Of a stretch of 64,000 nt of DNA, positions 34,601 through 58,600 are shown piece after piece (the stretch's first letter is position 1; each line of letters starts with the position of its first letter). The notes under the pieces were generated by a model. The model ran no database searches. It was not told the origin of the DNA and was given only the letters and a program-made list of their open reading frames with translations. The stretch lies in NCBI GenBank assembly GCA_965371665.1, contig CBDUZI010000001.1, positions 9,411 through 73,410 on the forward strand. The letters run 5' to 3'. The DNA is from an uncultured bacterium (GTDB taxonomy: Bacteria; Oederibacteriota; JAAXVQ01; JAUVAV01). Position numbers and translations under genes: made by a program.

Positions 34601-37600
34601 TCGTAAATCACGCCTTGGGACCACATAGCCTCGACATCAAATATCAGCTCTAAAACGTCCTTCAGACCTTCAAAGCCGTAATCCCTGAGTATTCCGTTGT
34701 GATGGAGGTAGATCACCAGCAGTAAGTCTTTGGCTCGGCCGCGCGCCGCATAAAAGTTCTGCTGATTATCCAGCAAAGCACACGCCTCGTTAATGTCTAT
34801 ATCGTAGTTTTCCAGGACACCACCGGCTTCCAGGTCATTTAGTACCTCCTCGAAGGGCGTGTCCTGTAAAACGTCCCAAAGGACATCGATATTGTCGTTG
34901 ACAAATTCCATCTCATGGAAAGGCAAAAGCCTGACGTCTTGCCGTTCCAGCAAATAGGCCGGATGCCGCGTCCAGACATAGCGATAAAGAATCTCGGGAG
35001 TCCAGTACTTAGAGAAGAAATACTTGGGCCAAGGCAGCAGTGTCTCCCCGTTCATGCCTGAGTCTTCTCTTAAAAGCCGCTCGAACTCCGCATAGGTAAG
35101 CGGATCATAACCATTCTGTTCAACGAGATGATTCAATTCAAGCAAGATGGCCCGCATGGCCACCTTCTGGTCAGAGCGCTCCACACCCCTTCCGATATTC
35201 GTTCTTTTCAGTTCCGGCATGAACGTGGATTTCAATTCATGCTGCAGGCGGTCGCCAGGATAAAAATTGAAAATCTGCCAGAGGTACTGCGTGACTCTCG
35301 ATTCCAGTTCCCGGGCAGAATACCTGGCCAAAATATCGTTCCGGTACGGCTCCCAAAGGCCGTGAGCCTGCAGAAGTCTCATTTTCTCCTGGGGTGAAAT
35401 CGTACCGGCCTGAAACCGCCGCAGGGCGATGATGTCCCTGACGTCGAACCGGCCTTCCTTTTGCAGGGCGTTCAATTGCACGAGCAATCTGTCCGCTTCG
35501 TCGGGAAAAGCCCATTGCTCGGTTAGCAGGTTATCGAAACCGGCCGGGGAAAAACCCATGAGGCTTAAAAAATCTTCCAGTTCAATGCCATTTTTCGGAA
35601 GAGACCGCTCAACGGCTGGAATACCGCAAAAGTCGAAGACCCGCGATTGTTCGGTGAACCCGGTTACTGTCGGCCCGACCAGCGGATTGCCAGAAGCGCT
35701 AATGGCAAACTCAAATCCACCTGCTTCGGCCACCATGAATTCCCGGTATTCCTGTTCAAAATTATCCGGCCGAAAGACCGCTTCATCCGGAACAATGTAG
35801 TTCCAGTAATATCGTTCATCCCAGCCATCGGCTTCAAAGGCTGCCCAGCGAAGACGGGTTTTTCTCTCCAACTCGGCCACGATCCATTGCTCATCCTGGA
35901 TTACGTTCTGCACGTTTTTGGCATTCACCTGGGAAGGCTTGAGGAAGCGGGCAATTTCATTCTGGATTCTGAGGTACCAGTTATACCTGGCCAGTTCGGA
36001 AACATTTGGATTATTCGGATCATAGCCGTAATTAATATCCCGCACCGTTCGGATGAAAAAGGTAAAACTGATGCCCATGTCCTGGCAGAAAGCCCTGATG
36101 CTCTGGTAGTCGCTTAAGTCCAGATGCTCCATTTTCCACACTTCAGTCTGCTCCGATTCCAGCCGGACATCTTCCAACGTTCCGCAACTATCTTCCGGGC
36201 TGGGATGGGTAGTTAAGCTAATTCTTGTTTCCACGACATCCTCGATGGGTATTTCCGCCTTTTCAATTACCATCAGGAGGTCCACCTGGCTGTAGCCGTG
36301 GATAAACCACGGTCTGACTTTTACAGTAACCTCATCCTTGGTAGTGGTTTTTACCGTTAGGATGATGTCAAGGTAGCCTTGCCTGCCCATATAATTACCA
36401 GTAGAATTGTAGCGTAAAAACCGGGTGGCCTGGATTTGTTCTCCGGATACGATCCAGCTGATTCCTGCTGCGGGTTGGTCAGCCAGGGATTCAAAGGCGT
36501 AATGATTCTCGACGCCTTGCTGTGTGGCGGTGAACCGGGTCGGGTCGGTGGCATCCTGCGCCAGCATCACCACGTCGCCGGTGATCTCTGCCGTCGCGCT
36601 GGTTAAAGGCATAACCATGGTCGGAAAAGGCTCGGCCCGAACCTGGTTCGCTGACCGGTAAAGCACCTCTTTGGTGCTTTGAGAAAGTAGATGGGAATCG
36701 ATGTAAGCAGGAATTTCACCCTCTTGCTGCGTTACCGGAGTAAATATGGTTTTTAAAGCTCCGGGAAAACCGCCTGTCTGTCGCTCCTCAGCTTTACGGG
36801 CGGCGGCTTGTGGTTTGCCCACTTCGCTGGTGGTTGAGCCAGAAGATGCGAAATCCGTTGCAGGCTTTCTGGAATCCGGACCGGTATAATAGATCAGGTA
36901 ATCCAGACCCTGTTGCAGGCTGGGTATGCGCAGCGGTCCGATTCGCATTTCTGGCGTCAGCATGGCAAGTCCTTCCGAATATAAATAACCTGATAGGCGG
37001 GGGGATTGTCCTAGCCAGGTAAGTACACTAAGGATAACCGGCGTGAAAAACCACATCAGTCTCCACGCTGCCTTAGAGCGCCAGCTTGCTTCCTCAGGCA
37101 GCTTCTGATTTCGCGCCTTTTCTTTGCTCGCTCTCCAGAAATCCGGACGTTCTGGCAAGATAGCCCGCAGCTTCTGCTTGTCCCGGAAAATCCAGAACAA
37201 TCCAGCAATCATCGAAACAAGCACTCCCGCGCTGACCGCAAACAGAAGAGGAGCGATAAAGTTGCCCATAAGAAAAGCAATAATGCAGAAAACCAGGGTC
37301 AGGCTGAAAATAATTTTCCCAAAAACACGCGCAGTGGATTTGCCCATGACACCGGTTTTTTCTGCAGCCACTAAGCCGAGCGCTGCCAGAATACTGATCA
37401 TTAGTGCAGCCAGGATATCTAAAAATGCAAAATGGATTGCTCCGAAAAGGACAACCGTAAGGACGAATCCGAATAAGAAGAAATAGCTGAATTTAAACAG
37501 GCCCTTGGTAATATCCCCGGCCACCTTCCAGGTGGCCCAGTTCAAAGGCATCTGGCGTAAATGCTGCACATACTGCCTCAGATTCCTGATGGAGCCGCGG

Positions 37601-40600
37601 ATCTCTCCCACCAGTTTTTCCAGCACCAGCAACAGCAGGAACAAGGCGATGACGGGCACGATCAGCGACAAGTTGAAAATTATTGATAGGATGATCATTA
37701 CCACGGCAGCCATGGCGACGACTTTCCAGCGGCTGCGGAGAAGTTGCTTTAATCCGAAGTAATTGAAATATTTGAATAAGACTGCGAGAAGAATAATTGT
37801 CGGCACTGTATAGACTATACTCATGGGATCGGCAGATAAAACCGTTATCACATTCTGGTAGGTGGAGATAAAAGCGGTAATTATCCAGTCGATAATATTT
37901 AGAATAATTTCAACTATTGGAGCAGGAACATATGGGACCACAATATTTCTCCAGACCCATATGCTAATTGGGACCGGCAGCATGAGTACGATCGCCCGGA
38001 TGATGGCCACGAAGAGGTCCTTGGTTAGCAAGACCGGGATTTTAAGCCGTTCCGGCATCTTTTGGACAACTCGCTGGTTAAATACCCAGGATATTCCAGC
38101 TCCCACCAGAGTGGTTTCCAGCATCCGAAGCAAGGCTTCACTAAATGGAATAGCGGTAATGATGCCCAGGCCAGGGACCATGAACAAAACCGCAACCTGG
38201 TACATCAAGGTCGGAATCACGCCATAGGCCATCTGGGACAGGGATTTCAAGCTACTGTGGCGGAAAACCCGTTCGATTAAGACTTCCAGGATATAGGCGC
38301 TCAAGGGGGCCAGGATGATAATCAAATTAACGGTGAGGATGGTTTGCCAGACATTATACTCCACGCCGACTTTGGCTAGATTGGTGATATTTTGACCCAA
38401 AAAATCAGAAATACCCGTGAAGAAGGCGAATACCAAAACATTCGCAAAAAACATTCCACTTATAGGCATCTTGAACCGGATAAAGTAATCTGCACCGTAC
38501 TTCCCGGATACTACAATGGCGGCCTTGACGGGTATCAAGATTTGTTGCTTAACACATTGCCACAGAGGCTGGTAATACCTTTCCCAAAGCTCAATCAGCC
38601 GATCTTTGAGCTTTATCAAAATATCCTTCACCCGACGCAATATATCCAAAATCTTCTTCTTCACCCACTTAAGCCCGTCGCTAATTTTCGTAATTGCCGT
38701 TTTCACAAAGCGGATCATTCGCTGGACGAACTCGATTCGCAGGATCAGAAACAGGAGATTTTTGACGAACCTGATGGCAGCTTTGACGCGATTAACGATT
38801 TTGATGACGATATTATCTTTAATCCAGATAAGAAAATTCACAATAATGGGACGGATGATCCGGACAAAGGGACTGACGATCTCCTCGTAAATCCTTTTCG
38901 GCAGGGTAATTGGCAGGACGAGGGCCAGCTGTTTGACCACGTGTCCGATCTCGTGAACGGTTATACGTACAAAGCCATGGGGATCTAATCCGATATCGGC
39001 CAGGATCCGGCCGATGGGGTTGACCTTCCAGACCCACTGTGCCCATCTCTGGTACCAGGGCAGCTCTCTTTGCAAGGTCTCCGCAACTTGCAGCATCATG
39101 TTGCGCATGACCCGGCTCGGCGTGCCCTGTCTGGATTGGAGGGCGCGGTTGAGCAAGGCCGTCTCGGTCAGGGCGCGTTTGCCTGCCTCGGTCTCGAAAA
39201 AGGCATAATAGTTTTCGAATTCCTGGGCAATTTTTAAGATATTGGGCGGAATGAGGTCTTTAAGTTCGTTTCTGGAGGGTTCACTGACTGCCATTTCCAC
39301 CGGTACTTCAACCGCCTGCTTTAATCCCAGGTACCGACCAAGCACACCTAAGACTATCAAGAGTCCCAGGCCCATGATGCTTCCAGCGAGGATGGCTGCT
39401 CCACCCATGAGCATGGTAACCATCCCGCCAGCCAGCAGAGCCAAGCCAGTAATACCCGCAATAATCATCCGCGTACTTACACGAATGGGGGTATCCACCT
39501 GGCCCTCCCCAGGCGCCATGGTTTCCGGTGGAGAGGTTTCCCTGGGCGGAACCTTATCCTGCGCGAATGGATACAGGGCCTCCAGGAAATCCCCCATCAT
39601 GGCCTCACGTGCCTGGTCAGAGGTAATGGCGTCGATAAACTTCAGCAGATCCGTAGTATATTTATTAGCCTGCATGGCTTCGGAATCCGATTCCACCACG
39701 TCCGTGCCCAAAAAGGTGATTCTTCCACCGAGCTCCTGATTAATCTTGATGGCTATTTTTTTGATTTCCAATTTTCCCCGCGACGTTTGGGCCAATTCCC
39801 GGATTTCATCGGCGATTTTGACCAAATCAATCGTGGTGCCTTTTTCGAGATAGAAACGCCGCTTGAAAAGCTGGAATAGTTGTTCCGCCGTGATCTCGAC
39901 CGCTTTGCCCGCGAAAAACGTCCGGTTTAAATGCCAGGCAAACAACTTCATGCCGTTCATGCGCATTTTAGCGACATCTTCCCTCATGATGGCTTCATAA
40001 CCGCCCAGAAAGAAGAAGCGTAGGCCTTCGGCCAAATGCACACGGTAAATATCCGGGATCGAGCGCAAAGCCATGGGCGGAGCTCCTGCGAAATTGGCCA
40101 GCGGTCCCGGCCGTCCGGTTCCGAAAGTATGGGACATTATGTGGATGGGACCCTGCCCCTCGATGACTCCCTGGTATTTGGCCAGATCCTCCTCCTCGAC
40201 CCAGCCGGTATGAAGTATCGAGCCGTACAACAGTCCCATGATGTATTTGGCATAGGCTTCACCCGCATATTTATCCCCGGCAAACATAGGACTCGGGTGA
40301 TCACCACCGGTAAAATGAATTTTCGGAATCACGCCAGGCAAGGCTTCTTCCACCGCCCGCTTCAGTTCTGCTTCCAGTTCATTCAAGCGCTCCTCTGCAG
40401 TCAGCCGGGCTTCCACCTCAGGACGTAGCTGAGCACGAAGTTCTCCCCGTTTTCTTTCGATTATGCGCACCATGGCGGGGTAATAAATGTCGGTAAATTT
40501 GTAGCTTCCCAGCTTGCCAAAGGTGAAAAATATCCATTTCTCTATTGGCACCCGCGTAAAGTCCACCGGTGGAGTGACCTCGGCCATGTCCAGCAGGTGG

Positions 40601-43600
40601 TGAGTAACCGCGCCGGTCCGGCCTTGGAAATTAAACCAGGGATTATAATCGGCGATTGCCCGGGCGTATTCCGGCTGAAGGAAAATGAGTTTGTTCAGGT
40701 AAAGGTAAATCAACTGGGAGAGTCCCCAGGTGCCTAATTCCTCTTTGGTCCCGGCCTTCACCTGGGTGGCCTGCAAATCCACTCTTTCAATCACGTGGTG
40801 ATAAGGCGCGCCGATATGGGGGGTTCCGATCACCAAGGAATTGAACAGGCGGGAAACATGTCCCACCACGGCGCCCATCGGACTCTTATCGCCTTGACTG
40901 GTGAAGAGCATGTTAATCATTTCCGCATCCGAACCGGGTTTCCAACTCTCGGTCAGGTTCCGGGCAAAATTGTAAAGCCCTCCCATCTCATCCCAGGTCT
41001 GGATTAAGCTGACATTATCATGTTCCAAGGCGGCTGAAGTGACTACGCCGAATTCATTTCGGCATTCAGGACATAGACTATGCAGGCGAATCACTCCAGG
41101 ATAACGCCAATGTCCGTAGTTCACCAGCAAGCGCAGCTCCACATCCGGCCCCGCCGCATTGGCCAGTGGGATAATGGTATTTTGCATGTATTCGGACACG
41201 CCTCCGCTCTTTCCCAGTCTGCCCATTTCCCCACCAACATCTATCAACTGCCCGTCCGGATTATCTTCGAGTCTCATCCCAGGAATAACCTTTGCCTCAT
41301 CATCCACAAAACTGGAAAGGGTAGCCACAACCCCGGTACCCAGTTTGGAGGCTAATCCGGATTTCACTTCAGCCTCGGATGTCATAAGGCCTTTAACCGT
41401 ACCGACCATATCCGACAATTCAAACCCATTCGCATCGATTCGCCCCAGTTCGGCTACCGAGTTACAAACTGTTTGCAAATAAGTTAGACACTTTAAGGCA
41501 TAAGTCCGATTAGTGTGATCGGTTAAATTACTGATGTATCCTTGGCTGGCCAATTCATAATATAATCCTTGCACGCGCTGGTCGGTAAAAGCGATGGGCA
41601 CGCCGGCTTCAACATGCGCTTTGAGGGCTTGATAAATCACTTCAATATCATCTCCCAGTTGCTGCATCTGAGAACGCATATTCTTAGCCACATAAGTATC
41701 CCTAACCCTTAACCGCTCAGCAACCAAGGTAATGTCATGTTGAGCTTCGGGTATTCTCTCTGAAACGCGCAACAAATAAATCAAGTCCTCCATGCTTTCC
41801 GGGTCAGAGAGATTTAGGTTCTGCAGAAGCTCCCACACGGCCTGAAGTTTCTGAATTTTCTCAGGGGTAAAGGTCTGCCCGTCCCGAACTTTTTTAAAGA
41901 TTTCATGCAATTTGGCGATTTCCGACGGCTGCATCCATTTTTCCAGCAAAATGTCATCGCGGCCACGGGATTTAATCTGATCAACCAGAGCCCTTAAGCC
42001 TTCGTCTTCCTCACGGTAACCCGGCCCCATGGCATCCAAAGGAAGCCTGCTGGCCTGTCTTCTCTCCCGGCTGATGTCCTGGCGCACCTCCTCGGCCACC
42101 AGATCCGCGCGTATGTCACCCTTCCACTGCTGGATTTCATATAGAATTTTTAACAATTCGATCTGGCTCGGATCCTGCCGCAAGGTTTGCAGGGCAGCCA
42201 GTTTTTGCCCTATCCGATCGGGAAGAATCCTGCCCTGGACGATCAAATTGTCGGATAAGCCGGCCGCCTCGGAAGCCAAACCGTACTCTGGCATATGGAT
42301 TAAAATCTGATCAATGCTTCTTACTGCGCGGGGCAGGTCATTACGCTGATATATCCCAATGCCCGGACCCATAGTGGTGCTGACAGTCAGGACAATTTTT
42401 TCTCCGGGTTTCTTTCCCAAGCGCCTCCGGACTTGGGTAATGGCCTCTCTGAGTTCTTCTTCCGTGATCTCTTGGTTTAAGATGGCCTGGTCCTGGATCA
42501 TCGTGTCTATATCATGCCACATCACATTAAGCTCGTGCGCCATCTGCCCCATAGTACCGTAGAAGCGGTGCCGGCCCTGGCGATGGATTTGTTCGTCCTC
42601 TGCCCGGAATTCGTGCTGGTCGCCAATTTTGGCTCTCTGCCCTAAATAATCGAGATCACCTTGATCGCGGGCCAGGACAGTTTCCTGATAAGCGACGGTA
42701 GCAAGGATAAGGGCCAAACCGACAGCGGCAACTAACATTAAAGTTGGCGCAATAATGCTGAAGACGACTATAGCCGGCAACATAACCAGCGCGCAGGCAA
42801 CGGTAGTTCCGCTCTTACCCGGTATGCGAGCCGTTAAATAAAACCCGACTAGAGCAATAAAAAAAACCGCAAGAACGACCATCAAAGCCGGGGTAGCAGT
42901 CATGGCTGCCAGGGCAATGCCGGCCAAACCCATCACACCCAAGGCAACGCCGAATACGAAAAATGTTTTTCCCAGGAAGCCTAAATTCCCGAAGCTTCTG
43001 GCAGCCTGATAATGCTCGACGGCTACACTGCTCCTGCGGCTTTTTTCAATCATGTTTTCATACTTACGCAGGTTGTAATTAAACTCAGAGTAAAAATACT
43101 GCTCCCGCAGCATTTCGATGGTACGGCTCGCCTCTTCAGCGCACAGACGGGCCTGTTCTACCGCCTCGGGAGGCTGCCGACCGGCCGCAATCGCGACTTC
43201 AGCTTGTTCCATGGCCTGTTGCGCCTCCGCTTCCTGCTGTTTCGCAATCACTATTTGTTCCTGTAAAAAATCATTATAACTTTGGGCATCGTAACCCAAA
43301 ACCGGTTGATCATTGGCGTTGGTGATCAGATGTTCCATAAAATCAGCCTGAGTCAAAATGTTGGTTTTATTTCTTTGAGTAGGCTGTAAATCAAAAAGAA
43401 TCGTCCGTATCTTAGTGAAAAAACCATAGTCCGGACTGGATTTAAGCTCTGCCTGGTAATAATCCGTTATGTGTACATTGCCCTCGGCATCGATCATGAC
43501 TCCTGAAAAATCTTCGGTCCCATGATAATTCAAGCCGTGGATATCGAAGACATTTATTGCGGTCTGGAACTTTTTGGCCAGGCCTATTATCCGGTTAAAA

Positions 43601-46600
43601 TATGCTTTTTTCAGCCGGTCATGCTCAACATAGACCTCTCCCAGCCGATCATAGGCTGTCCGAATCTGTTGGCCTAATTCAAACAGATGCTGCTCCAGGG
43701 ATATCGATGGATTCAAGGATGCTGCCTGCATGGTTGTTACTAATGCCCGTGCCTCAAGGTCGACTACGTCCCGGGCCTGGGTTATAAGGCCGGGTAATTC
43801 CCGCCGGCGCTGCAGATTATCCTTTGTTTGTACGTTTTCTTGCCGTAAAGCTTCCAGTTCTTGAATCAGCCGATCCTGCTTGTGTCGTGCATGTTGCAAC
43901 TGCTGATACTGATGGTTAAGGGAATCTTTACACTCAAGCAGTCCGTCTTTTTGCGCCTCCAGTTCTGCAATCTTTTGTTTTACCGTCTGAAGTTCTCCGA
44001 GGTCTGGAGCTAAATAATCTTCTGCGCTCATACCAAAGGGTTCTTTCATGATCAGGAATCCAACATCTGATACCTTAACGTCTTGGGAACTTCGCGCAGG
44101 GAAGATGCGGCCGGTGGGAATACGCGCCTTGGCGCTCCCGGCGTAATATTTCAACTGAGCCAGGCCGGGCGTGCGGGAGCGTGTGAAATAGCGCTGCAGT
44201 TTTCTGGCAAGTCTGGAACTCAGCGGGCGGGCGCTGACGACGATGCGGTCGATGCTGCCGGTATGTGCATCCACGCCCAGAGCATAATTTTCATGGATTT
44301 CCGTAATGTAATAAGTCCGGGTTTTTCCGTCGTCGCCGGTCATCACGAAGGGAGTGTCATGCGCCAGGCAGGCGTTTAAAAGCTCCCTTCCGCTGGAGAC
44401 TTCAGGAAATCCGCTTTCAGGCGAGGCCTTGACCTGGACGACTTGCTCAATGACAGGAGCCAGTTTTCGTTGAAGGATTTGTAAAGAAGTTATGGTTTCC
44501 AACTCGAGATTTGCTAAGTGCTGTTGATATACGGGATTTTCGGCCATGCTGGCCAGCAAACGTTCCAGCACGGCGCCTTCGTAACCAGCCGATCGCACCC
44601 AGCTGAGTTCTGCGAATTGAATATCCAACAAGATTTTACTCAAAACGGATAAACGCGTCTCGGTGCTTAACATTTTGCAAATCATGTCGAGTTTATATTG
44701 CTGTTCGCTATCCCTGGGGCTGGGACTGGATAAAAGCTCAGCGAGCTTTGCTTGCCGGTTTTCGGTATTATCCTCTTTAATGCCTTTAATATATTCAACC
44801 ATCTCTTGGTACGCCTGCTGCCTGGCTTGAGTTTGGCTGTCCTTGGCTCCTGTCATTTGGCGGGTTTTCTCCTTAATGGCCTTGCGCTCGCCATTTTTGA
44901 AAATATAGAAAAGCAGCGAACCTGCTTTGATTAAAACCAGGATTCCGGCCAGGGCAATGACTACACCGGCTATGATGGCTAAAGGCAGGGAAAAGACTTG
45001 CAACAGCATTACCAGGGAAACGGCCAGGCCGGCCGTGGTCCCGATCAGGATCGATTTCATCGGCAGCGAGAGCTTGGTCAGAGGATAAAAAGAATTGAAT
45101 TCAAAGGTGGCATTCTTCCAGATGCCAGGATGTTTTTGATTTGCATAGGTGAGAAACGCGTCATTATCAATAATCCCGGCTTTATCGAAACCGGATAAGC
45201 CGTGGATTAAAAATTCACTTAAACTCTGCAGCTTGAGAGGGTGGTTACTAATATGAATTCTTCCCACCAGAGTACGGGTATCCTCCACTGCCTGATCATA
45301 AAACCGGTTAATTCGTGCCGATAACTCAGCCTGGACCTCGGCAGGAGTTTTTCCCTCAGCCTTCCAGGTTTCAATTTCGGCAAAATAGAGTTCGCTCACA
45401 TGATAGGGGTTGAAACCGAGCATAAGCGGACAAGTTTGGCCTCGATTTTCTTTTTGCCATTCGGTTCTTAAGCTTTTCACCTTATCGATTACGGCTGTCA
45501 GCCGTTGTTCCCCCCGGCTAGCAAGAATATGGCCGGTGGCATCATCGCGCAAATTGTACTTCCAGGCTTCTTCCTTCGCTATCACCATTTCAATAACCAG
45601 GTTGATATGATTTCGTGCTGCCAAAGTCACTAAATTCATTTCCGCCGACCTGCGATCGAGAAGATTATGTTTTGCCATATATAAGCCGATGTATTTTTCC
45701 CACTCATAGGGATGAAAAACAACATCCACCGGTTCAGGATGTCTCTCCTCCAGGATCGGCGCTATATCAGCCGTTTTATCTCCAAAGGCCACATGATAGG
45801 CGGCTACCTTCAGTCTTAAGCATTTAGCCGCTTTAATCTGTTCGCGGGTGGTATAAAGTTCATACTTTTTGCTGCCCATAAATAATGTTATATAAACCGA
45901 ATAAGCAATCATGGTGAGCAGGATTATGAGATTGGACAGCCAGCGTATTTTCATGATTTTCGAAATCCCAGGTATAAATTCGGGCAAATTTATTATCGTC
46001 GAAGCTATGGCGGCATTTCGAACAAATTTCTCGGGTGTGTACATCCGGTCTTCAGGCTTTTTCTCGACCGAGATTTCGGCCTCGACACTGCGCGTTTCGC
46101 GAATTTCCGCGCCTGCCTCGGGATATTTTAATTCATCGAAAAATGCCAGCACCTCTTGGGAAAATCCCTCTACGTTCTGGGGACGGTATAATCTGGCTTT
46201 TATTTCTGGGCTGTCCAGGGATATATAGCCGAGTTTTTCAGCAGGATAATCCGCAGCCTGAATCTCAGTCCGAATTTCCAGGGCCTCGACATCTTCGCCC
46301 AAACGAATCTCGAAATTGTGACCAGCGGCTTGCAATTGATCCTGGAGGGCATAAATATAATGCATCTCTTCGCGAGGCGCCATTTCTTCGGAAAGCATAA
46401 TCGCTACCACGGGTACAACGGCTATACGTTTACGCCCGGCTTCGGCTATTATTTCCTTAATTTCCCGAACCAGGGTCGCGATCTGCTCTTCCCGATTGGC
46501 TTCCGTCTGGGATGAAGGCAGCAATATCTCTGCCTCGGGATTAAAGGCGCCGGTCGCTTTCGTGAGCCTTACCCCCCCCATACCGAAGCCTTGAGAAGAT

Positions 46601-49600
46601 AGGCGCACGGCCGGCAGGATGACTTCATCGCCGCTTAAAGCGGCAAGGTCTTGGGGAGAAATCAAACCTGCGCTGGCGCCTAATTTTTGGGGATCCAAAT
46701 GAGAAGCCAGAACTATACCAGCAGCATAGCCTTTATCGGCAAGCCATTGATTTGCTTTGGCGATAATGAGTTCACCGTTGGGTTGACTTAAAGCTTCACT
46801 ATTAATCATAAATCTTTTGGTCCCGGACCATTGGCTGATATCCGACCGGGTTTCTTTGTCTCCTTGCAAGGCAAAATAGATTTTTATTCCATAAAGCAGG
46901 ATCGGTGGCACCAGTATAGCCAGTAAGGGATTTATCACTGAAATGCTCAGGATACCTAAGCCGCTTAAAGTTTCGGCCAGGTTAGCAACCGCATCTAAAC
47001 CTAAAAAGCGAGTGTACACCCAGAAGCCCAGCCCCATTCCGGCAATGATTAATCCGCCCCCCGCGGCTTTGCCTGCCATTCCAATTTTACCCTCTAATTT
47101 AAAAAGGCGGAGTATTTCGGCGAGTTTTTTCGCTCGCACGCCAAACAATTCAATAAATAGAATGGCGCCGAGCCACCACAACAAGTGCACCAGTTCAAAT
47201 CCCATGATCGTCTCTATCAAGCCAGACCAAAATACGACGTAGGCTGCAAAGGCACTACTGCCTAAAAAGCTTGCTATTCCCAGAAATTTATTCCTGGTTA
47301 TTCCATATACAATAAAATAACCCATAACCAATGCAGTCAATGCAACAGCACTTCCCAACATGATTTGAGTTCCAAAGAAAAGCAATCCCAACCCAAGGGC
47401 AATGGCTCCCAGGGATGCTAGAACCTTGTTCTCCAGGGCGCTCCGGATTTTCGAGGATTTAAAGGCAGGCGTATCCTTGCCTTGCAAGAGGGAAATGACG
47501 GTCTGTCCCAGATTTTTACCTAGAGCGTCGATTTGTTCCGAACGCAATGGGGTTGAGCTCTTCTGGATAATTAGTTCCAAAAGTTTATTTAAAGGCGTAT
47601 TTTTTCGGCCTGGATTTATGCCTTTGGCCGTGCCTAACGTCAAAGTGCTGCCTTCGGAAAATTCGGCGGGTTGATAGGGATTCGGACATAGATTCAAATT
47701 CCCTTGCCCAGCCTGACCTGTCAAAACAAAATGTTTCTCGACTAACTGCTTTATGGCTCCGTAGTCAGAATGACGCAAGACGGTTTCCAGAAGGCCATTT
47801 TTAAGTTTACTTATAACTTCATCTGGTTCCTGTCTCGGCCAAAGATAAGCCGCAGCACCTATGGCGAAAAGCAGAGCCCGGGGGGACTTCGCTGCAGCCA
47901 GCGAAACTCGCAAAGCTTGAAGTCTTTTCTCTTGGTCTGCGTCTAAAGTTTGGGCACCAGCCAGATCAATAATCTCCTGGTCCAGCCTATGTATCTCTTC
48001 ACGCTCTTTTTCCTCTGCCTGGGAACCCAATGTTTCTGCCAAAGTCTGAAGCATATGTTGGTTTTTTGCTTGAATACTCTGAGTATCGCGTTGTACCGGT
48101 TTAGCTTTTTCAGTTTTTTTAGCCGTCATGAGTACGTTTAAATTCGCTTCGAATATTTCCGGCTTGCTTCTGTCCAGTTTTAAGGCCACGTTTAAAAGGT
48201 TTTCCGCTTCCTCGCCCTTGAATCCAGCAGCTTGGATTTTCTGACGCAACTGCTCTTCAAACTTATCAATCTTTACCTCTTTTGGCTTTTCATCTTCATA
48301 CAGCTCTTCCTGCTTCTTCAATTCTTTTTCGGCCCAGGCCTTGGCCTTTTCCTCGCTGAGAACCGGGCCGATCAGGGTTTTATATTCCTCGCGAAGATCC
48401 GGATAATCCTTGCTAAGAATCATGCCGGCAAAAATTTCCAGGAAGCTGAACCATTTCCAGCGATTCGGCTTATCGAAGAGTGTGCCCGGGTATTGGGTGA
48501 CATCATGACCCGTGACATGGAAGAGTCTTTGCTTAATCGCGGCCAATAAAAATTCTCCCGGCTCCCGTCCGCCCACTCTGGTCTCGGCCTCGGATTCAAT
48601 CCAGGGAATATCCTTGCCCATGACCTTATGACCCGACATCAGAGCCAGGGTAATGAGTTCGGTTTCGAATTCCATCTTGACGCTGCTGGCAAGTTCAAGC
48701 GCTTTCTTGACAACCTCCGGCCGAAAAGCCTTAAATCCGGCCTGCGTATCCGGCACTCCTCCCAGCGGGACAATCGCCCGGACCATGAGATTAAATCCCA
48801 GGCTCAGGATATGCCGCGCAAGCGGCTTGGCAAAAACCACGGATTCCGGGCCTACGCGCGACCCGTAAACCAGTCCGACATCCGCATTCTCAGGATTGGT
48901 CAGCGGTTCTGTGAGCTTGCCAAAAAGCCCGGCATTGGTGGAAACATCGGCATCTATATAGCCGGCTATATCCACCTCGTCTTCTTCCACCATTATTTTA
49001 TAGGCCTCGTACAAGGCTCCGCCTTTTTTTTCCTGCCTGGCGAATTTCAAGCCTTTGCGGTCGAAATAATACTCGACCCTGATCTGGTCTGCCCGGTGTT
49101 CAAAATCGCTTTCGATCACATTCTGCGCCAGCCGGGCTGAAGCGTCATCGTCTGTGGTAAAAAGAATCCTGGGGCCTAAATGTCCGGCCTTTTTATCAGG
49201 ATCACTTGAATAAGCTACTCCCTCTTCTACAATAGTAATCGTCATCACATCCAGCTTTTCCACACCCTCTTTTTCAGCCTTATCCAGCTTTTCTTTAGCC
49301 TCTTCGGCGTCTTTCTTGGCATCTTCCACCTTTTTTTCAAGGTTTGGGTCCTGCTTAGGAACTAACAGGTTAAGCTTTTTTAATATAGCCGGCAGACTGA
49401 ATATCAACCCGCCCAAGCCGGCCAGCCCGATACCTGTCCAGGAACCCAATATCAAGGCCGCTGGAAAGAAAAAAGTCATGACCACTCCGGCGATGATTAG
49501 AAGAATGCCGATAATCCCGGCAGCAAGCACAGTGTTTTCATCCCAGGCATTCAAGGCTTTACGCTTTTTGCTCAAGTCTTCGTGGTTTTTACGCGCCTCT

Positions 49601-52600
49601 TCTTCATCCTTTTCGATTTTCTCCATCTCCGCTTTTCGGAGTTTTTCCAAGCCCACTTTCGCGGCTAGTCTCAATTCCTTTATCTCTTCCTCCGTAGGAT
49701 TGCTTTTTACCTTAATGACCAGGTGATTGCTTTTCCTGTCCTTGTCCTTTCCTTTTTTAGTAATGCTTTCTTCTATCTGCTCGATGGGAGTAACCTCCTC
49801 CAGAATGTCCTTGCTCGCTTGCCAACTTTTCGTGCCGTCGTTATAAGGATGGTTGGTTCCGTCCATTAACAGCACTTTCCAATCGACTCTTTCATTCCAG
49901 GCCGCGTTATCGTCGATTTGCCGAACTTTTACGCGCAGAAAATCCTCCCCATTAGGATGACCCAGCACCGGGTCCTCGCTAAGATTGGGGAAAATCCGGT
50001 TCTGTTCCCGGTAAAACGAAATTGCCACGCCCAGGAGCAGTCTGTCCTTTCCTTCCGGAATCCTGGTGTTTCTCATATCCACCTTTGCTTCCGCAAGTTT
50101 CAGAATATAGCGAAACATGGTCCAATCTATTTCCTGCATATCATTTGCACTGAGCCGAATAACTTTTTGACCGCTTTGCTTAAATAGCTTTATTTGGTCC
50201 GAGCTCTGTCTTTGGTATTCTTCCGGGGTTAAAACCAGATATGGCAGAAAAGCACCCTGCATAGCCACAGCCTCTGCTCTTTCCATCAGCTTTACGCGGG
50301 TTTGTTCGATATCTTGAGAGAGAGAAGGGCTTGCGGCCTCAGACGTCCGGACCTGGGATATTGCCTGGAGTCCATCCCTGACTTTTTCCAAGGGCGCCAG
50401 CAATTTTGGCGTGAGCCCTCCTTGCTCATAGTTTCGAATAACTTCATTTATATTCTCTAAACTATTGTCAATATTATCCTGACGCCCGGGATTGTCTTGA
50501 TACAGCTTGAGCAATTTATTAAATGCTATGACTTTGGCTTCATACAAAATGCCTTTGCGGCCGATATGCACCAGAATGGCCTGGGCACCTGCCACATCGC
50601 CGGCGCTGCCTAATTCCAACGCTTCCCGGACGATCTTATTAATCTCCGAAATGACTTCGGCATTGGCTTTTTCGGCTTTTTTATTTTTTTCCTGTTCCTT
50701 TTCCAGGATTTTAATCGCCTTGCTTTTATCGATCAGTCGTTTCTCGCCTAAAGCCTTGATTAAGTCAGGATCGGCTTGCTTGCGCTTGAAAACATCATCC
50801 AAATACTCTTTAAATTCATCCGCGTTCGGCGAGAGCAAGGCCGCCGCAAGCACGCTGGACATAACCATGGTCATGGCTTCATCGGCTTTCAACCAGGTCA
50901 TATCCGTGTCTTGCTCATCAGCTTTTTTGCGTTTTTCATTGACCTTGTTCTTGACCGCAATGAGCGTGGCCCTGAGATCTTCCGGCGTGGTCTCGGCGGT
51001 GAATAAATCCTCCAAATTTTTTACGGCTTGCTCTTTTTGAGCCCTCGTTCCTTGCCATAAGTGCTCAAACAGTCCGCCGGATTTAAAGTGTTCATCCCTT
51101 AGTAAACTATTGCCTTCTGTTGGACGGATTTCGGGTCGGGCAGGAGTGGCCCGGCGTTTTTTGTAGAAGTAGCTTAAAAGGCCGGCGATCAGCGTCACGA
51201 TAGTAACTTGGATAGCAGCCAGGGTGATCCGGCCCCGGCTGGTTGAGAACAAGGGAGCCCGGGGCGAACCTTCCAATACGATGTGATCCAATATCTCAGG
51301 ATTGGTCTGGGCCACATACTGAATAACTTCTAAATCCGGGACCAGGCCTTCAGGGCTTAAAACTCTCCCGCGCTGCAGCGCCTCGGGCAGATACTTGAAT
51401 TCCCAGGCCATGGCATTCCCGGTCTGAAGATTGCAGATAAGCCCGTCGCATTGATCCATAACCGGTTTCATTCTTTCAAAAAGTTCAGCCCGGATCCAGG
51501 CCTGCGATTTCCCCTCTGCCAGCCAGGCCTTTATCTCTTCCTGGTAAGAATCCATGGAAAAATGCCAGGAATCAAAGGTAATTCCAACCGGTGCGGGTCT
51601 ATCCGGATGTCGGCCGGCCCAGGCGTCTCTCAAGGCCTTCGCATACTCGATCTGATTCATGAGGTATTCATCCTGACTTATGCCGGCGGCTTCCAGGGGT
51701 TCGAACAATTCCCTGGCTACCGTGGTTTCAAAGGTGATGGTAATATTGTTATCCGCGGCTTTTTCCAGCAGGGCCAGTTCTTCGGCCGTAGGCGCTTTTC
51801 TGGTCAAATGGTCCTCCATCGCCTGGGGATCTTGTTCCAGGGTCTTGACGTCGGGTTTGGTCAAGCGGAAATAATTCGCCCAGTCATAAGGATGAATGTT
51901 GGCCTGCGTAGGTTCGGCATGGGGCGTATTAACAATATCCGTAAGGGATAAAACCTCTTCTTGCCAGGGAATGTGATAAGAGCCGACTTTCAGGTTTAAT
52001 TCTTTGGCAGCCTGCAATTGGTCTGGGGTGGCATATACCTCGACTCTTTCCGCTCCGGTATAAAGCTGCCAATATTTTATATACATACCCATGAGTGGTT
52101 TCAAAAGAATACCCCGCATAGACCAGAAGCCGGTAGTAGTTATGTGCCCGCGGGACATAAGTTCCTGGGACAATTCAGAAAGCGGGGCCTCCTCGATTTT
52201 CAGCTGCTCGAGCACCTGGGCCGGCTGCGCCACATCCGGACTCACCTGGGTGGTAGCCGGGGCGGCCTGCATTTCCGTGACTCCCGCAGCCTCTGGTTGC
52301 GTCATGGCGGAAACATATTGATTTCCTGGAACCCCAAAATACCAGGCGCCGGCTGTCAGGGTCAAGACACTGAGTAGGGCAAACGGAAGGAGTAGCGTCA
52401 AATGTTTGCTTTTGAAAATATTCTGTACTGCTTGCGGCAGCTTATCGTTTTGCAGCAGCCTGGGTATACCAACTCTTTGCTGCACCTGGTTCCGGATTAA
52501 CAACAATGTTCCAAGAACAATTATAGCCGTACCGCTCAGTCCAGCCACCCAACCGGAAAACAGAATGAATGCAGCCACGCCGCTTAAAAAAAGCGCTGCG

Positions 52601-55600
52601 CCTGTCAAGGTTGTCAGTACCGGCCTTTCAACCGATCTCCTGGTAGAAAGGGTGATATCTGTCATGCGATCACGCCAAGATCGATAAGCGATCGTTAGGG
52701 AGCCATCGTTTTGCAGCCAATAGGTTCCTACTGCTCCTCGCAATTTGGGATCCGCTCTAAACGTACGGACAACTCGCCAAATATTCCGCCTATACAGTCG
52801 GGTGGTTGCTTCATCAGCCGTAACTACCAGCAGCACCTTTTGGGCATTGCAGTCGATGCTTAACGCTGTTTCACGAATAAATTCCATGAGCTCATTGTTT
52901 AAACGCCCGGGATCATTAATCTGTATGACAACTAGCGGACGGTTCACCAGGCCAAAACTGGCTATTTGGATCGGAGAGGCCTGTTCGGCTTGCAAATTAT
53001 CCCCACCAATCTGGCGGAACCGGCCGGCCCTCGCCAGCTGGTAAAGCCTATTATCATCGGCGTTTGCAGGGATCGGCTCAAAGGTCTGTGAAACCCAAGG
53101 TTTCAATGCTTCTGATTCGGCAGTCACTGCCGCTTGTACATCTGTCGGCTCTTTGGCTGCCACCATTTCGGCTTCGGGAACTCGGGTTTCAGGCACAGCA
53201 ATCGGTACTGTCGCCACTGACGCAACCAGCTCGGGTACGGCTTCACCGAAGAAATCCTGAAAGATGGCGGCGGCCATGGTTTTGTATCGCATCAAGGGAT
53301 CTCGGTTTTTCAAAAACATCCTTAAATTAACATCTTCCCTGGTGCTCTCCACCGGATGCAGGAACCTTGCACCCCAAGCCAGGCGCAAAGCAAAGATGAT
53401 ACTTTCGCGCAGCTGATCCGGAGTGCGCTTCTGGGATTGATAACGTAAAGCCGCAGCCCGCACAAGATTTTCCCGGAAATGTTGCCGGGCTTTGGCTGAA
53501 CTGCCCTGCCCTATAACGGATTGATATTGGTCGGCCAGCGCTCTGAGGTCTGCCTGCGATAAGGCAATACCGCGTTCCTGTAGTTCGGCAACCAGCAATT
53601 GAAATCCATTGAGGTCCAGCAACCGTTCCGAAGTTATTTCCGCTTGAATTCTGCGAATCAATTTCCGGCGCAAATCTCCACCTTTAGTTTTGTCTGCCTG
53701 GGCTTGCCGGATAAACGATCGTAAAGAGGTGCTCATATGGGGAAATAGGGTACTAAGGGCCCTAACCATTCCAGAGACTTCCCACTCATACGGATTGGCA
53801 GCCCGCGCATGCATCTCCACGATCAGGGCGGCCCGCCTTTTCAAGGCTCTGCGTAATGCTCTCCGGTTGGTAAAGCGTGCGGTAAGTTCGCCCAAGGTTT
53901 GCTGGATTGCGCCTCGAACAAAGGTATCCAGCTCAGCAGCATCATATTTCTTAACCTGTTGGATTAAAGCGCGGAATTGTTTATCCGCCGAATCCAGCGG
54001 TTGTAAATACTGGTCATTGTAAGCACGCATATCGGCATCCCGCCGGGAAATTCCCCGATGGATACGTCGAATATATTTAACCACGTTCTTACCCAGGGGG
54101 GTGCCGACCAAATTAACCTTCGTGTCACTTTCCAGGCTCTGGACAAGTTTTTTGACGAAATCAGGTGCATAAGTCTGGAAGATATCATCATCCATCAAAC
54201 TGTAGATGAACTGGGCAAACCCGCGTAAACCCTGCCGGGCCACGCGTCCGAAAAGCTGCTCACGCGCGGTCTTGCTCGGCGGAATCTCGGCTTCGATGGC
54301 CAGCATGTCAGGCCCTACGACGTTGAAGCCCAGAGTACCGCGGGGGTTGGTAATGGTAACGACATTAGGCAGGGCCGCGATCTCACGAATGGCTTCAAGA
54401 TTTTTCTGAGTATCGGAAGAAATTTGACAAAGTGTCAGGATCCGATATTGTTCCCTAATACGCTCTTCTGCAGCCTGCCGCGCCTTGGGTTCAGTAATCT
54501 TCGCGGCTTTGGCCATCTGGACGCGTATTGCCTTTCCTTGGGCCTTAGCCTGGGCCACAATGCGGGCAACCTTTTCAGGCGAAGCGCGGGCATCGATGAC
54601 TTCCACCGTTAATCCGGGCTGTGCTCTCAAAGTCTTTAAAAGACTGTGGGTTAAATTCATTAGCTTGCGGGTAGTGTATGTTCCGAGCAAAGTTCCGGCC
54701 AGGGGTCTGTGCTGCCCTATGATCTCCTGCAGGGCCTCGGTCTGATGATAAGGATATAAGTGAATCTGATCGGCATAACGATCCCGGACCAGTGAGAGTC
54801 CGTGGTCCGAAGGCAGGAACAGCGGCTCAAATCCCATGCGCTCGCGAAATTCCTTGAGTTCCTCGCGGTTGCCGATAGTGGCTGACATATAATGCAAATA
54901 GGGATAACGCCGGGCATATTGGGCTATGGTCAGCTGGCTCTGATAGTCGCTGATTCCGGTAAACCGGATGCCGGCCCGGATCGCCGGATTAGTTTCTTCC
55001 AGAAAGGCTTTGGCCTGCAAGGCTTGATGGGTACCTCCCCTGATTTCCTGGCCATGCATGTATTGCCCGGTTAAGCGGTTGTAAAGGACTATAACTCCTT
55101 TAACCAAACCATACTCAATTCTACCCGCTTGTTGCGGTCTGGCGCGCGATTGGCCTTCGGAAAGATTGGTCTGGATGAATAAGAATTGCGCATCCAGCGC
55201 GGTCCGCAGGTAATGCTGCAGGACTGGAAATTCCGTCAAATCCCTCCCTTGGGGTAAACCCAATATGGCTTTTACCCGCGAACGTCCTGCCGGGGTTAAT
55301 GCCGCCAATTTGATATCTTCTTCAATCTTTACTTTGTACAGGTCCGCATCCTCTGCCACCAGCTTAGCAACCTGGGCAAAATATAGTCGTATGACCGCTG
55401 GATTAGAACGGACCAAATCTTCAATTTGCCGGAAAGGCGGCAGGGATTTGAAACCAGCCTGAGCTAAAAGTCTCGGTAGTGCCTCACGAGCCTGGGAACT
55501 TAGCCGGAGCTGTTCAGTCGCTAAATCCATCTCCAACATACCAGGAGTCTCGACGAGAGCTCCTATCAACATTTTAAGCCTCTGGTCCTGAAGCGGTTCC

Positions 55601-58600
55601 AGGACAGGCTGGTTAATCGCCCGCGGAGTACCGGCTTCTATTTTGTGGGTTACATGGCCTTCATCATCAATACGTATAAGGGGTTCCCGCGAATCAACCC
55701 AGAGCTGGTAATCGTGGTTAAAGGCTGCCTCGGTTCCATACGTTATGTCAGCTTCGTAGGCTAAGGCGCGGTCAAAGCTTTTAACCATCTTTTCCCCATC
55801 CCAGATGCTTACCACTGGCTGAGAGCTTTCCAAGTCATACTCACCTACGATGGCCACCGTGATGCCTAGAGGGGCTAGCAGGACTGCCATTTCCTCCCCT
55901 TGTTTAAGGGCTAAATCGATGTTCGGTGTGGACAGTTTAGTGCCTTGATTCAAGAGAGAGACCGCAAAAAGGCCCATGGCCGCGGCCTCGGTCTTGCCCT
56001 GGCCTGTTGCCAGTTGGAGGGCATATCCCACTGTGTCGATAGCCGGAATATCCGAGCGGAAGAGCAGGCGCACGAAATAAAAAACTTTCCTCCAGCCGCG
56101 GCGTTGCCTCATCTCAGAAAGAGCCAGGGCTGCCATGATTTGATTGCGATGCAGGGTAAAGCCTTCCAGCCGGATGCGGCTTTCAGGGTCGGATTCGGAC
56201 GCGGCCTGATCTCGTTTTTGTTTTTCAATGGTCACAGCGGCGATGGTCAGGGCTCGAATTCTTAGCGTTTCCAATGCCTGCTTGGCTTCTGCCAGATCCA
56301 TCCTTTGCAACTGCCTGCGGAGCCGATCGGTTTCCGCAAGCAGTTGAGGGAGGGACATTTTTTCAAATTGTACCCGGAGTTTGTTAACCTGGTTCGCCTG
56401 ATCACGAAGTTTGATCGTGGTTCTGCGTGAGGCAAAGGCCTGGTAGCGGGGCATGGTAAAATGATAGATGAACCAACCTCCGGCAATTAAACCGCTGGCG
56501 ATAAAAAACAGCCATGAGCCCAGGCCGACAAGAACCAAGCCGGTGACCAACCCTGCTGCCAATTGACCAAACTGCACGATCAGATAAAGTGAACTTACGA
56601 CACCGGCTGCCACTACCGGCATGACCAGATACGGCAAAAATCTTCCGGCCAGAGTCCTGAACTGTTTCTGGACTGTCACTAACTCGAGCCGCATCCGCTG
56701 TTCAGCCAGGAGGGCGCGGACGTGATCGATCACTGCGATAACGGCCCCCACTAGAATGAGAATGCAAATGCCCGTGCCTAAGCCTAAGCCAATCGCTTGC
56801 GGCAGCAAGATAATGACCGTTACGATGATGCCTCCCACCACCGGAAGTCTTTTGAAAATTTTGGTAAAATAAGCCTGAGTCTGTTCCCCTTCAGGTATAC
56901 CGGGAATATAATCACCGCTAATGGCAAGCTGCTCGGCCAGGGTCTCGGGCTTGAAAAGCATTCGAGTTCCTAAAACCGAAAAAAGCAGGATGATGGCAGC
57001 CACCACGAACACATAAGTCAAGGTCATAGGCGCGAGGACCACGCCAAACAAGGCGGGGGCTAACATGATAAGCATGGTGATCACAGCGCTCGACCCTATG
57101 GCCGCTACCACGCCAAAATAATCCATTTGTAGGGGCAGAATGCGTTCGCGCGGCTTCTTTTGCTCTGTTTGTTTAACATCCCGCGCCGACCGGATGGAAA
57201 TTTTATAGTATATCGTGTTCAGGGCAATCGCGAGAGCAACGGTGGCCAATCCTCCGATAAGGATAGGCAGACCGGAGAGGGAAAGTACACTGCCAGAAAC
57301 CAAGATTCCAGCGGTGTGAAGCAAATTCGGCAATACCATCACTCCGAACAGAACATAATTGGTCCGGCCGCCCAAGCCGCGCTTCTCTAACTGTGTCATG
57401 AACCATAATAAGACGACAGAGCCCAAGGTCAGACTAATAATCGCGACCAGTTGACTGCCCAAGGTTACAAAAATGTCAGGCATGGCTTGCACGAGCAGTA
57501 CAGCATATATCACTGCAATCCCAACCGAAATATATTTAATGTAGCGCTGGACCTGTTTTCGTCCGATTTCAGTTTTTTGAAGTTTTTTCAGAGGTGGAAA
57601 AACCAGGGTAATGCCCATTATAATCAAGCTAGCTAAGAAAAAGGGAGCCAGTCCCAGGCCGAAGATGGAAAGATTATCCAACGCCCCGCCTAGCATAAAG
57701 TTCATCCCACTCAGCGCCGCCGCATCGTTCAACCTTAGAAAGGTAAATAAAACCGGACTTACGCCTGGAATCGGCACACAGCAACCGATGAAATAAAGGC
57801 CGATAACACCTATTGTAATCAGCCCTCGTCTAACCAACACCCAGGGAATGCCTTGACTAAAGCGACGGAAGTAGATAACCGCATCTTCCTTGGCAGCCTG
57901 CATCCACTCCCGCCAGTTTAGTCTTTGTTCCACGGCAGGTTCCGCCGGCTCCCCGGCGGCGGTTTCCTGAACTACTCTCTGGGACGGTACGCTAGGTGCC
58001 TCTCCGTATATCCGGGTTATTTCCTCAATAGCTTTGGCCAGTTCATCGGGGCGCGAATCTCGAGTACGGAAATCCACAACCAGACGGTTGGCGTCTCTCA
58101 CAATTTTTAACAAAGTCTGGTTCAAAGCGGCTCGATCTACGGTTTCACCTCTGGCCAGATGCTCGTAGAATCTGCCTAACTGGGTAAGTTCGCTGGCCAA
58201 GTACTTCCCGGTTCGCTGCAAATAGGCCAGATAGGCTGAGCGTTCTTCCTCAGAAAAATACGCCATGCCTTCAGCAGTGTGGCCATATAGATAGGTTAGT
58301 TCCTGATCCAACAGCCATGCCTTTTCAACTAGAACGGCTTTTGCCGATCTGGCAATTTGAAGTCTTCCATGTGATTTTAAGTCGCGCAGGCGGGTATTTC
58401 GCGCTTCCCGAAAATCCTGCATGGTCATCCAAACATCCGTGCCTTCTAATTCTATATTGAGTTTCGCTATCGCCATTGCCAGTTCGGACGGCCTCATGCC
58501 CCGGCGCCGAAAATCCACGTTTTGGAAATCCCCTCTGCGGCGGCCGGCATCGAGCGTGATGTGAATCAAGGTTTTATTTAAGGCTGCCCGATCCAGGGCC

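Follow-up and report, generated by a model that had tools for sequence, protein, structure and literature searches.

A SecY-like channel and a SecA-like motor joined in one reading frame of a giant membrane protein of Oederibacteriota

In this study, we analyzed a 64,000-nucleotide stretch (hereafter the window) of contig CBDUZI010000001.1 (positions 9,411 to 73,410; assembly GCA_965371665.1) from an uncultured bacterium of the phylum Oederibacteriota, and determined that a SecY-like channel and a SecA-like motor are joined within one giant membrane protein encoded there. The fusion is encoded on the minus strand, within a single open frame that covers window positions 25663-64000 and continues further, and which comprises 13,678 codons from stop to stop in the genome, or 13,644 amino acids (aa) counted from the first methionine. 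That the two modules share a polypeptide had been proposed in an initial annotation made from the sequence alone, and this was borne out by the finding of both in the same reading frame in six genomes. Published work already describes giant proteins with SecA domains as well as engineered fusions of SecY to SecA; a natural SecY-SecA fusion was not found in the literature searched, in which the only fusions were engineered, although SecY could be listed in domain figures and tables of two preprints on giant proteins. The natural fusion is real, conserved and apparently undescribed. Our preferred reading, to which we give an even chance, is that it is a private, tethered single-chain Sec translocase that is active in ATP hydrolysis, resembles the accessory SecA2/SecY2 systems and serves the extracytoplasmic domains of its own giant or of sibling giants. 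It is still an open question how bacteria export proteins of 10,000-80,000 residues into and across a membrane, and a role of SecA domains in giants has been only a conjecture; the fusion may let such giant proteins bring their own export machine.

Architecture and ATP site of the fused SecA

The initial annotation had placed a SecA-like motor at 54160-56085 and listed a series of SecA motifs, all of which were found at their places and in SecA order on the minus strand (Table 1). SecA does occupy that interval, although the module proved to be larger on both sides (53203-56430), and what had been taken for a coiled-coil linker at aa 2480-2560 corresponds to the N-terminal helices of SecA in BLAST and hhalign comparisons. 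These helices are followed by NBD1, the preprotein cross-linking domain (PPXD), NBD2, scaffold, wing and two-helix finger, as in SecA; the cross-linking domain and the finger, whose absence had been named as a sign against SecA, were both located by hhalign and alignment. Pfam recognized SecA_DEAD at aa 2475-2715 (E 6e-16) and P-loop_SecA at aa 3022-3241 (E 3e-6), with SecA_SW (E 0.003) and PP_bind (E 0.03) under the cut-off. A profile of the fused region matched 26 canonical SecA proteins with an hhalign probability of 100 (E 4e-72, 748 columns, 25% identity), and the PPXD half matched canonical SecA with a probability of 94. When the PDB was searched with a six-copy profile, all 25 matches at E<=0.1 were SecA or SecA2, which upholds the assignment to SecA over an SF2 or SNF2 helicase. 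The eight NCBIfam matches were likewise all SecA models, at 83-108 bits compared with equivalog cut-offs of 800-862, which were not reached. A generic SF2/SNF2 helicase is ruled out by the exclusively SecA-type matches in the two databases.

Whether the catalytic residues are intact was a question raised with the first description of the motor, and we found that the Lys and Thr of Walker A, the Asp-Glu pair of Walker B and the Gln and arginines of motif VI are all kept, which by conservation alone favors an active ATPase. Walker A reads TGQGK[TS] in all six close copies of the fusion, or TG[QE]GK[TS] if the more distant copy P0154 is included. The Walker B region aligns ungapped and in register (DEGHVTHKIEAGTP versus canonical DEVDSILIDEARTP) and reads DDEG[HD]V in six of six close copies, with the DE also present in P0154, and motif VI (Q..GRV.RQ) retains its Gln and two Arg in all seven rows that reach it. 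At the tip of the two-helix finger, a Phe or Tyr stands at or beside the canonical Tyr in the five rows that reach the finger; in E. coli a bulky hydrophobic residue is what matters at this position, according to the accessible part of PMC3101351. Across five fused copies, 67 of 166 canonical-conserved columns are invariant versus 98 of 549 others (odds ratio 3.1, the p-value being overstated since the fused copies are kin, and the canonical set having been chosen in part by a Walker A pattern). The fused SecA also has insertions in NBD1, PPXD and NBD2, so that the PPXD clamp is enlarged; a possible origin of the PPXD insertion as a partial repeat had weak support (probability 39%, pairwise z ~1). 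We infer from these conserved and altered positions that the fused SecA is probably an active but retuned ATPase.

Fused SecY, hairpin and the SecE question

Pfam detected SecY at aa 2062-2373 (E 4.8e-40) over model positions 1-304 of 306. In BLAST the fused SecY was 27% identical, across 410 columns, to the SecY that the genome encodes separately. Its score against the housekeeping SecY equivalog of NCBIfam was 151 bits, below the cut-off of 254. The predicted structure had a mean local confidence (pLDDT) of 87.7, a good model that leans on the canonical family as 120 of the 128 rows in its alignment were canonical, and modeling from six rows only failed (pLDDT 48.6). The best structural match was 5aww_Y, the SecY of Thermus thermophilus (Z 33.6, root-mean-square deviation 3.6, 384 residues aligned). 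As modeled, the fused SecY is a clamshell of the SecY/Sec61-alpha fold with ten transmembrane segments (TMs) and a plug. Its loops have 26 Lys and Arg in the five inner and one in the five outer loops, indicating the canonical orientation. Six copies retain all ten TMs together with the plug region, and in their C5 loop the Pro-Gly, Gly, Thr and Tyr. At the six positions that we take to form the pore ring, the window copy has five hydrophobic residues (L, F, L, I, I) and a polar one at the Ile187 position, the register of TM5 being uncertain.

The linker between SecY and SecA is about 90 aa in length and includes a hairpin with ~60 hydrophobic residues that is flanked at both ends by basic ones. 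These flanks imply that SecA would stay in the cytoplasm. The hairpin as a fused SecE or SecG was not supported: hhalign gave 10.7 versus SecE (19 SecE of the phylum, from 30 loci found by motif) and 12.2 versus the genome's own SecG, with 20 column shuffles at 7.0-13.9. Housekeeping secY, secA, secE and secG are all encoded on other contigs of this 98%-complete genome (the SecA and SecY copies on C30 and C35, with a single secE found), so the fusion is a second set.

Complex prediction for the fused SecY with the C-terminal half of the fused SecA gave a score of 0.35 versus 0.00 for the best control, which supports the pairing weakly; runs agreed in at least 63% of contacts and the partner had a pLDDT of at least 73. 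Of the 80 solved complexes 58 attained the mark used, as did two of the 110 mismatched pairs, and scores of at most 0.60 account for seven of the 80 and for both mismatches. This prediction may reflect only likeness or memory, as like complexes are solved and most alignment rows are canonical.

Table 1. Features of the giant protein in the window, all on the minus strand; aa numbering starts at the TTG at 63852 (open reading frame 25663-63852).
Feature	Window position	Strand	Residue (aa)	Basis or remark
Giant multi-domain membrane protein	25663..64000	-		First Met ~2.6 kb past window end (G000:C1:76007)
GH5 glycoside hydrolase domain, upstream of SecY	62632..63345	-		Pfam E 5e-6
Fused SecY, ten TMs and plug region	56698..57870	-		Pfam, BLAST, model, structural match, loop charges
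SecY C5 loop YIPGIPEG, Arg357 equivalent = Pro	56887..56910	-		Alignment
Conserved hydrophobic hairpin, probably two TMs, from SecY TM10 to SecA	56455..56655	-		Alignment and charge pattern
Fused SecA, all except C-terminal tail/zinc finger	53203..56430	-	~2475-3550	Pfam, hhalign, PDB profile search
SecA N-terminal helices	56173..56430	-		BLAST, hhalign
Walker A ATGQGKT	55990..56010	-	2615	Motif and alignment
YGTEAAFNHDY	55740-55708	-	2705	Motif
Walker B region RIDDEGHVTHKIEAGTP	55618..55674	-		DE pair retained
PPXD with ~65-aa insertion	54973..55617	-		Pfam, hhalign
MSATIG	54888	-	2989	Motif
Motif V (TNPRGTLGFNV, altered) and motif VI (QLFGRVARQG)	54229..54354	-		Alignment
NPRGT	54348	-	3169	Motif
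GRVARQG	54249	-	3202	Motif
SLMDDDIF	54201	-	3218	Motif
Two-helix finger, tip LRMFLKNRDP (canonical LRAYGQKDP)	53218..53400	-		Alignment
Candidate first cis substrate, ~370-aa soluble segment (putative)	51226..52347	-		TM positions and flanking residues

Distribution and origin of the fusion

Fusions of the hairpin type were identified in six of the 15 genomes of the order (G000, the genome of the window, and G002, G003, G004, G006 and G014), which represent five genera and two families, and in none of the 84 other genomes of the phylum (99 in total), a count from which three weak matches beyond the order (E ~1e-5; reading frames 185-542 aa long) and nine other weak matches are left out. SecY is always ahead of SecA, and the copies in the five other genomes are colinear with that in the window over 1,200-1,900 aa at 38-47% identity, the likeness continuing unbroken for ~250 aa beyond the end of SecA; those in G002, G004, G006 and G014 are interrupted by contig ends, with G004 continuing on a second contig. 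An assembly chimera at the SecY-SecA junction is ruled out by the same junction being present in six genomes. Three DNA runs, all from one marine-sediment study, contain the stretch with no differences listed: one contig of X1, possibly the source of the window DNA, spans it entirely and one contig of X2 joins SecY to the first helix of SecA. No RNA datasets holding the stretch were among the matches listed.

Three fragments on ENA contigs of 26,809 bases, probably one and the same contig, add one further copy. A second form is represented by P0004/P0154 (ENA), which has a signal-like start, SecY at aa 382-704 (E 4e-36), a hairpin, an insert of ~200 aa and a related SecA that scores 355 bits against the fused profile; three cluster mates are labeled Ca. 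Pacebacteria, a label that is unverified. In the third form, that of G011, a 9,665-aa frame carries SecY at aa 116-511 and then, with no hairpin in between, a very divergent SecA-like region whose motifs are in order by eye and whose hidden Markov model E value is only 5e-5. This region falls in an Atlas SecA_DEAD cluster at 0.93, with the 10 top named matches all agreeing; it has no SecA match in the PDB and no relative in the 98 other genomes. In one wider database search, P0004 was the sole fusion among the 120 matches listed of 245, and in another the 25 confirmed loci among the matches listed were all ordinary SecA without SecY. Two further wider searches, one of them over 2,835-5,000 aa, had no matches; all of these negatives are weak.

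Where TM7 begins, the housekeeping SecY of the phylum has D[YF] instead of the usual Asn, and this rare D[YF]xG signature occurs in all 11 canonical SecY from the phylum (L001, L009-L018) and in one of 145 other representatives. It is also found in the six close fusions and P0154, and is absent from G011. Tree support for grouping the fused secY with the host-lineage SecY was 27, in a tree that left out 12 of 48 rows (including P0154, G011 and the stand-alone protein of G002), so an origin in the host lineage is neither shown nor rejected. In a quick tree that carries a long-branch warning the three fused forms group at an SH support of 97, leaving their common origin unsettled; the P0001 row, identical to G002 in the SecY tree, was counted once. 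The stand-alone protein (L025:4035-5327, plus strand, G002:C115) has 431 aa, combines a partial SecY (model positions 1-229, E 1e-18) with DUF2007 and is encoded beside BatA/BatD-like genes.

Comparison with known Sec systems

Comparison with canonical SecA-SecYEG (PDB 3din, 5eul, 7xha) revealed a homologous full-length SecY and a SecA of the same domain order with the ATP-site residues kept. Unlike the canonical system, the fused pair is a single chain within a giant and a second copy in its genome, has 21-27% identity to canonical proteins, lacks its own SecE and SecG as well as the zinc-finger tail, has lost the C5 arginine, has acquired the insertions in NBD1, PPXD and NBD2, and scores far under the NCBIfam equivalog cut-offs.

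The articles compared in the following were available in part, and statements on them refer to the accessible text. Giant proteins of Omnitrophota and Actinobacteriota have been described with a divergent SecA that lacks scaffold and wing and with SecYEG encoded elsewhere (West-Roberts 2023, bioRxiv 10.1101/2023.11.21.568195). That study suggests that the SecA domains help to export the giant, and SecY occurs once in its main text, as a separate channel. These giants share with ours SecA DEAD and PPXD in a multi-TM giant, a separate normal SecA, sugar-import neighbors and a proposed giant export. In contrast to those of Omnitrophota, the protein described here has scaffold, wing and two-helix finger as well as a whole SecY in the chain and is from a different lineage; the reported lack of scaffold and wing rests on domain annotation, by which these parts are under the cut-off here too, and the SecA groups were compared by description only. 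A 2026 preprint on Omnitrophota describes a SecA_DEAD cluster, with SecY not mentioned in its accessible text, and neither SecA nor SecY is mentioned in those of PMC11573180 and PMC10066038.

By analogy, the closest working counterpart is the accessory SecA2/SecY2(-Asp4-Asp5) system of streptococci and staphylococci, which is likewise a second, diverged pair encoded with a very large surface protein (PMC5076819). In that system SecA2 and SecY2 are not joined, have Asp partners and handle a glycosylated serine-rich substrate, whereas here the two are fused together and are also part of the giant, and no Asp family member was among the neighbors scanned. SecY2 models scored 91-98 bits and SecA2 models 41-95 bits, all under the cut-off and under the best canonical model, placing the fusion outside SecA2/SecY2. 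The engineered T. thermophilus SecY-(GGSG)4-SecA (Sugano et al. 2017, PMC5562318) has the same order of SecY then SecA, and this chain translocates proOmpA with SecE and SecG. However, it is artificial, near wild-type in sequence and joined by a short soluble linker, in contrast to the TM hairpin (none in G011) and thousands of additional residues of the natural one.

Proposed function and alternatives

We propose that a private translocase of this kind could operate in four steps. Housekeeping SecYEG would insert the chain co-translationally up to the hairpin, the fused SecY would then fold and borrow the cell's single SecE, and the fused SecA would fold in the cytoplasm and dock onto the SecY of its own chain. 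In a final step, later extracytoplasmic segments of the same chain and perhaps of sibling giants would be pushed through this channel at the expense of ATP, sparing housekeeping SecYEG. The tether may compensate for the lost C5 arginine, the loss of which would also exclude ribosomes from the fused channel. Large periplasmic loops of membrane proteins require SecA, and SecY is degraded when it has no SecE (PMC8082313, accessible text). A candidate first substrate in cis is the ~370-aa soluble segment downstream of the module (Table 1), which is probably extracytoplasmic because the preceding TM has basic residues on its N-side and the following TM precedes KKRR.

Several observations weigh against the proposed translocase. 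In the SecY half, the Arg357 equivalent is replaced by Ala or Pro in all six close copies, the GIGNG motif ahead of TM5 is broken and part of TM5 is missing, the Ile187 pore-ring position is polar or small in five of the six, and, of 44 positions with a conservation of at least 90% among 128 canonical SecY, only 20-26 are retained, compared with 43 in the genome's own SecY. In the SecA half, the later Asp and Arg of canonical DEVDSILIDEAR are lost from the Walker B region and the same residue is kept in just 47 of 166 canonical-conserved columns. Motif V is also altered there (TNPRGT[RLM]GF[ND] versus canonical TNMAGRGTDI), with two registers possible, in one of which three of six copies retain the Arg, and the G002 copy is without Arg. 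Neither SecE nor SecG was found in or beside the giant by motif and profile searches. Finally, the module was not detected in 16 of the 17 paralogs of the giant in this genome, and no second SecY is apparent in eight of the order's 15 genomes. Among the latter, G007, G008 and G010 are 98-100% complete in 7-10 contigs and encode family giants of 9,474-12,551 aa, demonstrating that the module is not needed to build such giants, and since most of them are without it, it would be a helper rather than a requirement. These findings are to be read with the caveats that very divergent SecA copies can escape Pfam, as G011 shows, and that the two giants upstream on C1 were scanned with SecA and SecY profiles only.

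An extension of the proposal, which we consider tentative and somewhat unlikely, is a self-translocating giant, in which SecY and SecA in the N-terminal third would thread the rest of their own chain in cis without docking of a ribosome. The module does sit in the N-terminal third, with 6,727-9,168 residues after it in four long copies. The fusion exists in at least three architectures (the hairpin, P0154 and G011 types), and the Omnitrophota giants with SecA only may be reduced or under-annotated forms of it.

By alignment, the channel half is one that has lost residues important in E. coli SecY, whose Arg357 is essential for the start of post-translational translocation and for ribosome binding (PMC3101351, accessible text). 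The motor could be active and the channel dead, with the fused SecA working on housekeeping SecYEG, as has been suggested for the SecA domains in Omnitrophota giants, and the fused SecY being an anchor or docking scaffold, an explanation that we regard as unlikely. It would account for the loss of the Arg357 equivalent and GIGNG, for the change at one position of the pore ring and for the disappearance of roughly half of the canonical invariants, as well as for the lack of a detectable dedicated SecE, and it has a parallel in the published giants with SecA domains and SecYEG encoded elsewhere (West-Roberts 2023, accessible text). However, six copies preserve the ten TMs and the plug region along with the C5 residues named above, the arginine is retained by P0154 and G011, and a ten-TM anchor would be superfluous in a protein with ~60 hydrophobic segments (simple hydropathy scan).

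The presence of one module per genome alongside 7-17 family members would also fit a polyprotein that is cut after synthesis, freeing SecY-hairpin-SecA as a trans-acting accessory translocase for the giant family. The giants are mosaics whose blocks shift position between genomes, and self-processing has been proposed for Omnitrophota giants in the literature accessible to us. Yet Pfam and PDB searches identified no peptidase domain in the giant and the similarity among relatives runs unbroken ~250 aa past the end of SecA, which makes cleavage improbable in our view. 

An unsolved aspect of the topology is that no TMs (G011, G002) or four (G003) lie between the signal-like start of the giant and SecY, whose N-terminus is inside; with an even number, the membrane side of the family domain after that start conflicts with the orientation of SecY. 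Together with the signal-like start in 17 of 17 paralogs, the enlarged PPXD clamp, the downstream sugar ABC transporter genes and the link of giants of such kind to predation (reported in partially accessible sources), this might suggest a repurposed threading machine that moves, for example, a polypeptide of a host or prey, possibly while the module sits in the membrane of another cell. We think this rather improbable, as the TMs were counted by simple hydropathy scanning and the charge test over the paralogs is weak, with hairpin flanks at 0.15 Lys plus Arg per residue versus a background of 0.13. In addition, a ten-TM SecY is expected to stop in the inner membrane of its own producer. Captured genes in functionless decay, to which the long branches and the presence in just 6 or 7 of 15 genomes, a patchy distribution, might point, are very improbable given the open frames and invariant ATP-site residues in six genomes of five genera at 38-47% identity.

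The preferred reading of a private translocase is open to experiment because motor and channel are contained in one excisable unit of ~1,550 aa, for which ATPase activity, translocation and action in cis versus trans are testable with the assays used for the engineered fusion. The unit further offers a natural case in which to ask if a single SecA acting on a single SecY is enough, and which of the 'essential' residues of SecY can be dispensed with once the motor is tethered.

The giant protein, its family and its gene neighborhood

The giant belongs to a family defined by an N-terminal domain of ~450 aa, which, with the signal-peptide-like N-terminus, is encoded outside the window. All 15 genomes of the order have the domain, with 7-16 or more matches per genome, and it was found in none of the 84 others; within the phylum it is thus confined to the order, and it resembles unnamed hypothetical clusters of Omnitrophota in the Atlas. 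A putative resemblance to TIKI/TraB-like proteases was unsupported by PDB or Pfam. This genome has 17 paralogs totaling ~56,500 aa, with the SecY/SecA module in one only. All 17 begin with a signal-peptide-like segment (WH.P.RR...F.FPYL.WAF) that is unusually conserved (L006:13108-14508, minus strand, and 16 paralogs). Three of the giant genes, of 3,041, 7,289 and 13,678 codons, are in tandem (G000:C1:35076-107406, L006-L008) and share an N-terminus of ~480 aa at 63-64% identity. In G011, the family domain is on a separate gene of 1,278 aa directly upstream of the fusion, in which SecY follows the signal-like segment by ~80 aa and ~4,000 TM-free aa follow the SecA-like region (L024:1-10983, minus strand, G011:C8).

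Pfam revealed no convincing domain in aa 3601-12729 of the giant. A stretch with a DADV motif at 48400-49000 (minus strand), presumably resembling a family-2 glycosyltransferase, was not reported by Pfam. Two HExxH motifs, HEDAH at 28174-28188 and HEIGH at 38941-38955 (both minus strand), are possible zinc peptidase sites with no family match. In the translation, a hydrophobic block of ~220 aa is present as a near-exact repeat that flanks the GH5 and beta-rich domains (window 60100-64000 and L006). Downstream of the giant, at 264-25338 (minus strand), are genes for two sugar ATP-binding cassette (ABC) permeases, a sugar-binding protein, a PorV-like/OmpA protein and a protein with a C-terminal domain like those of the type IX secretion system (T9SS) or FlgD.

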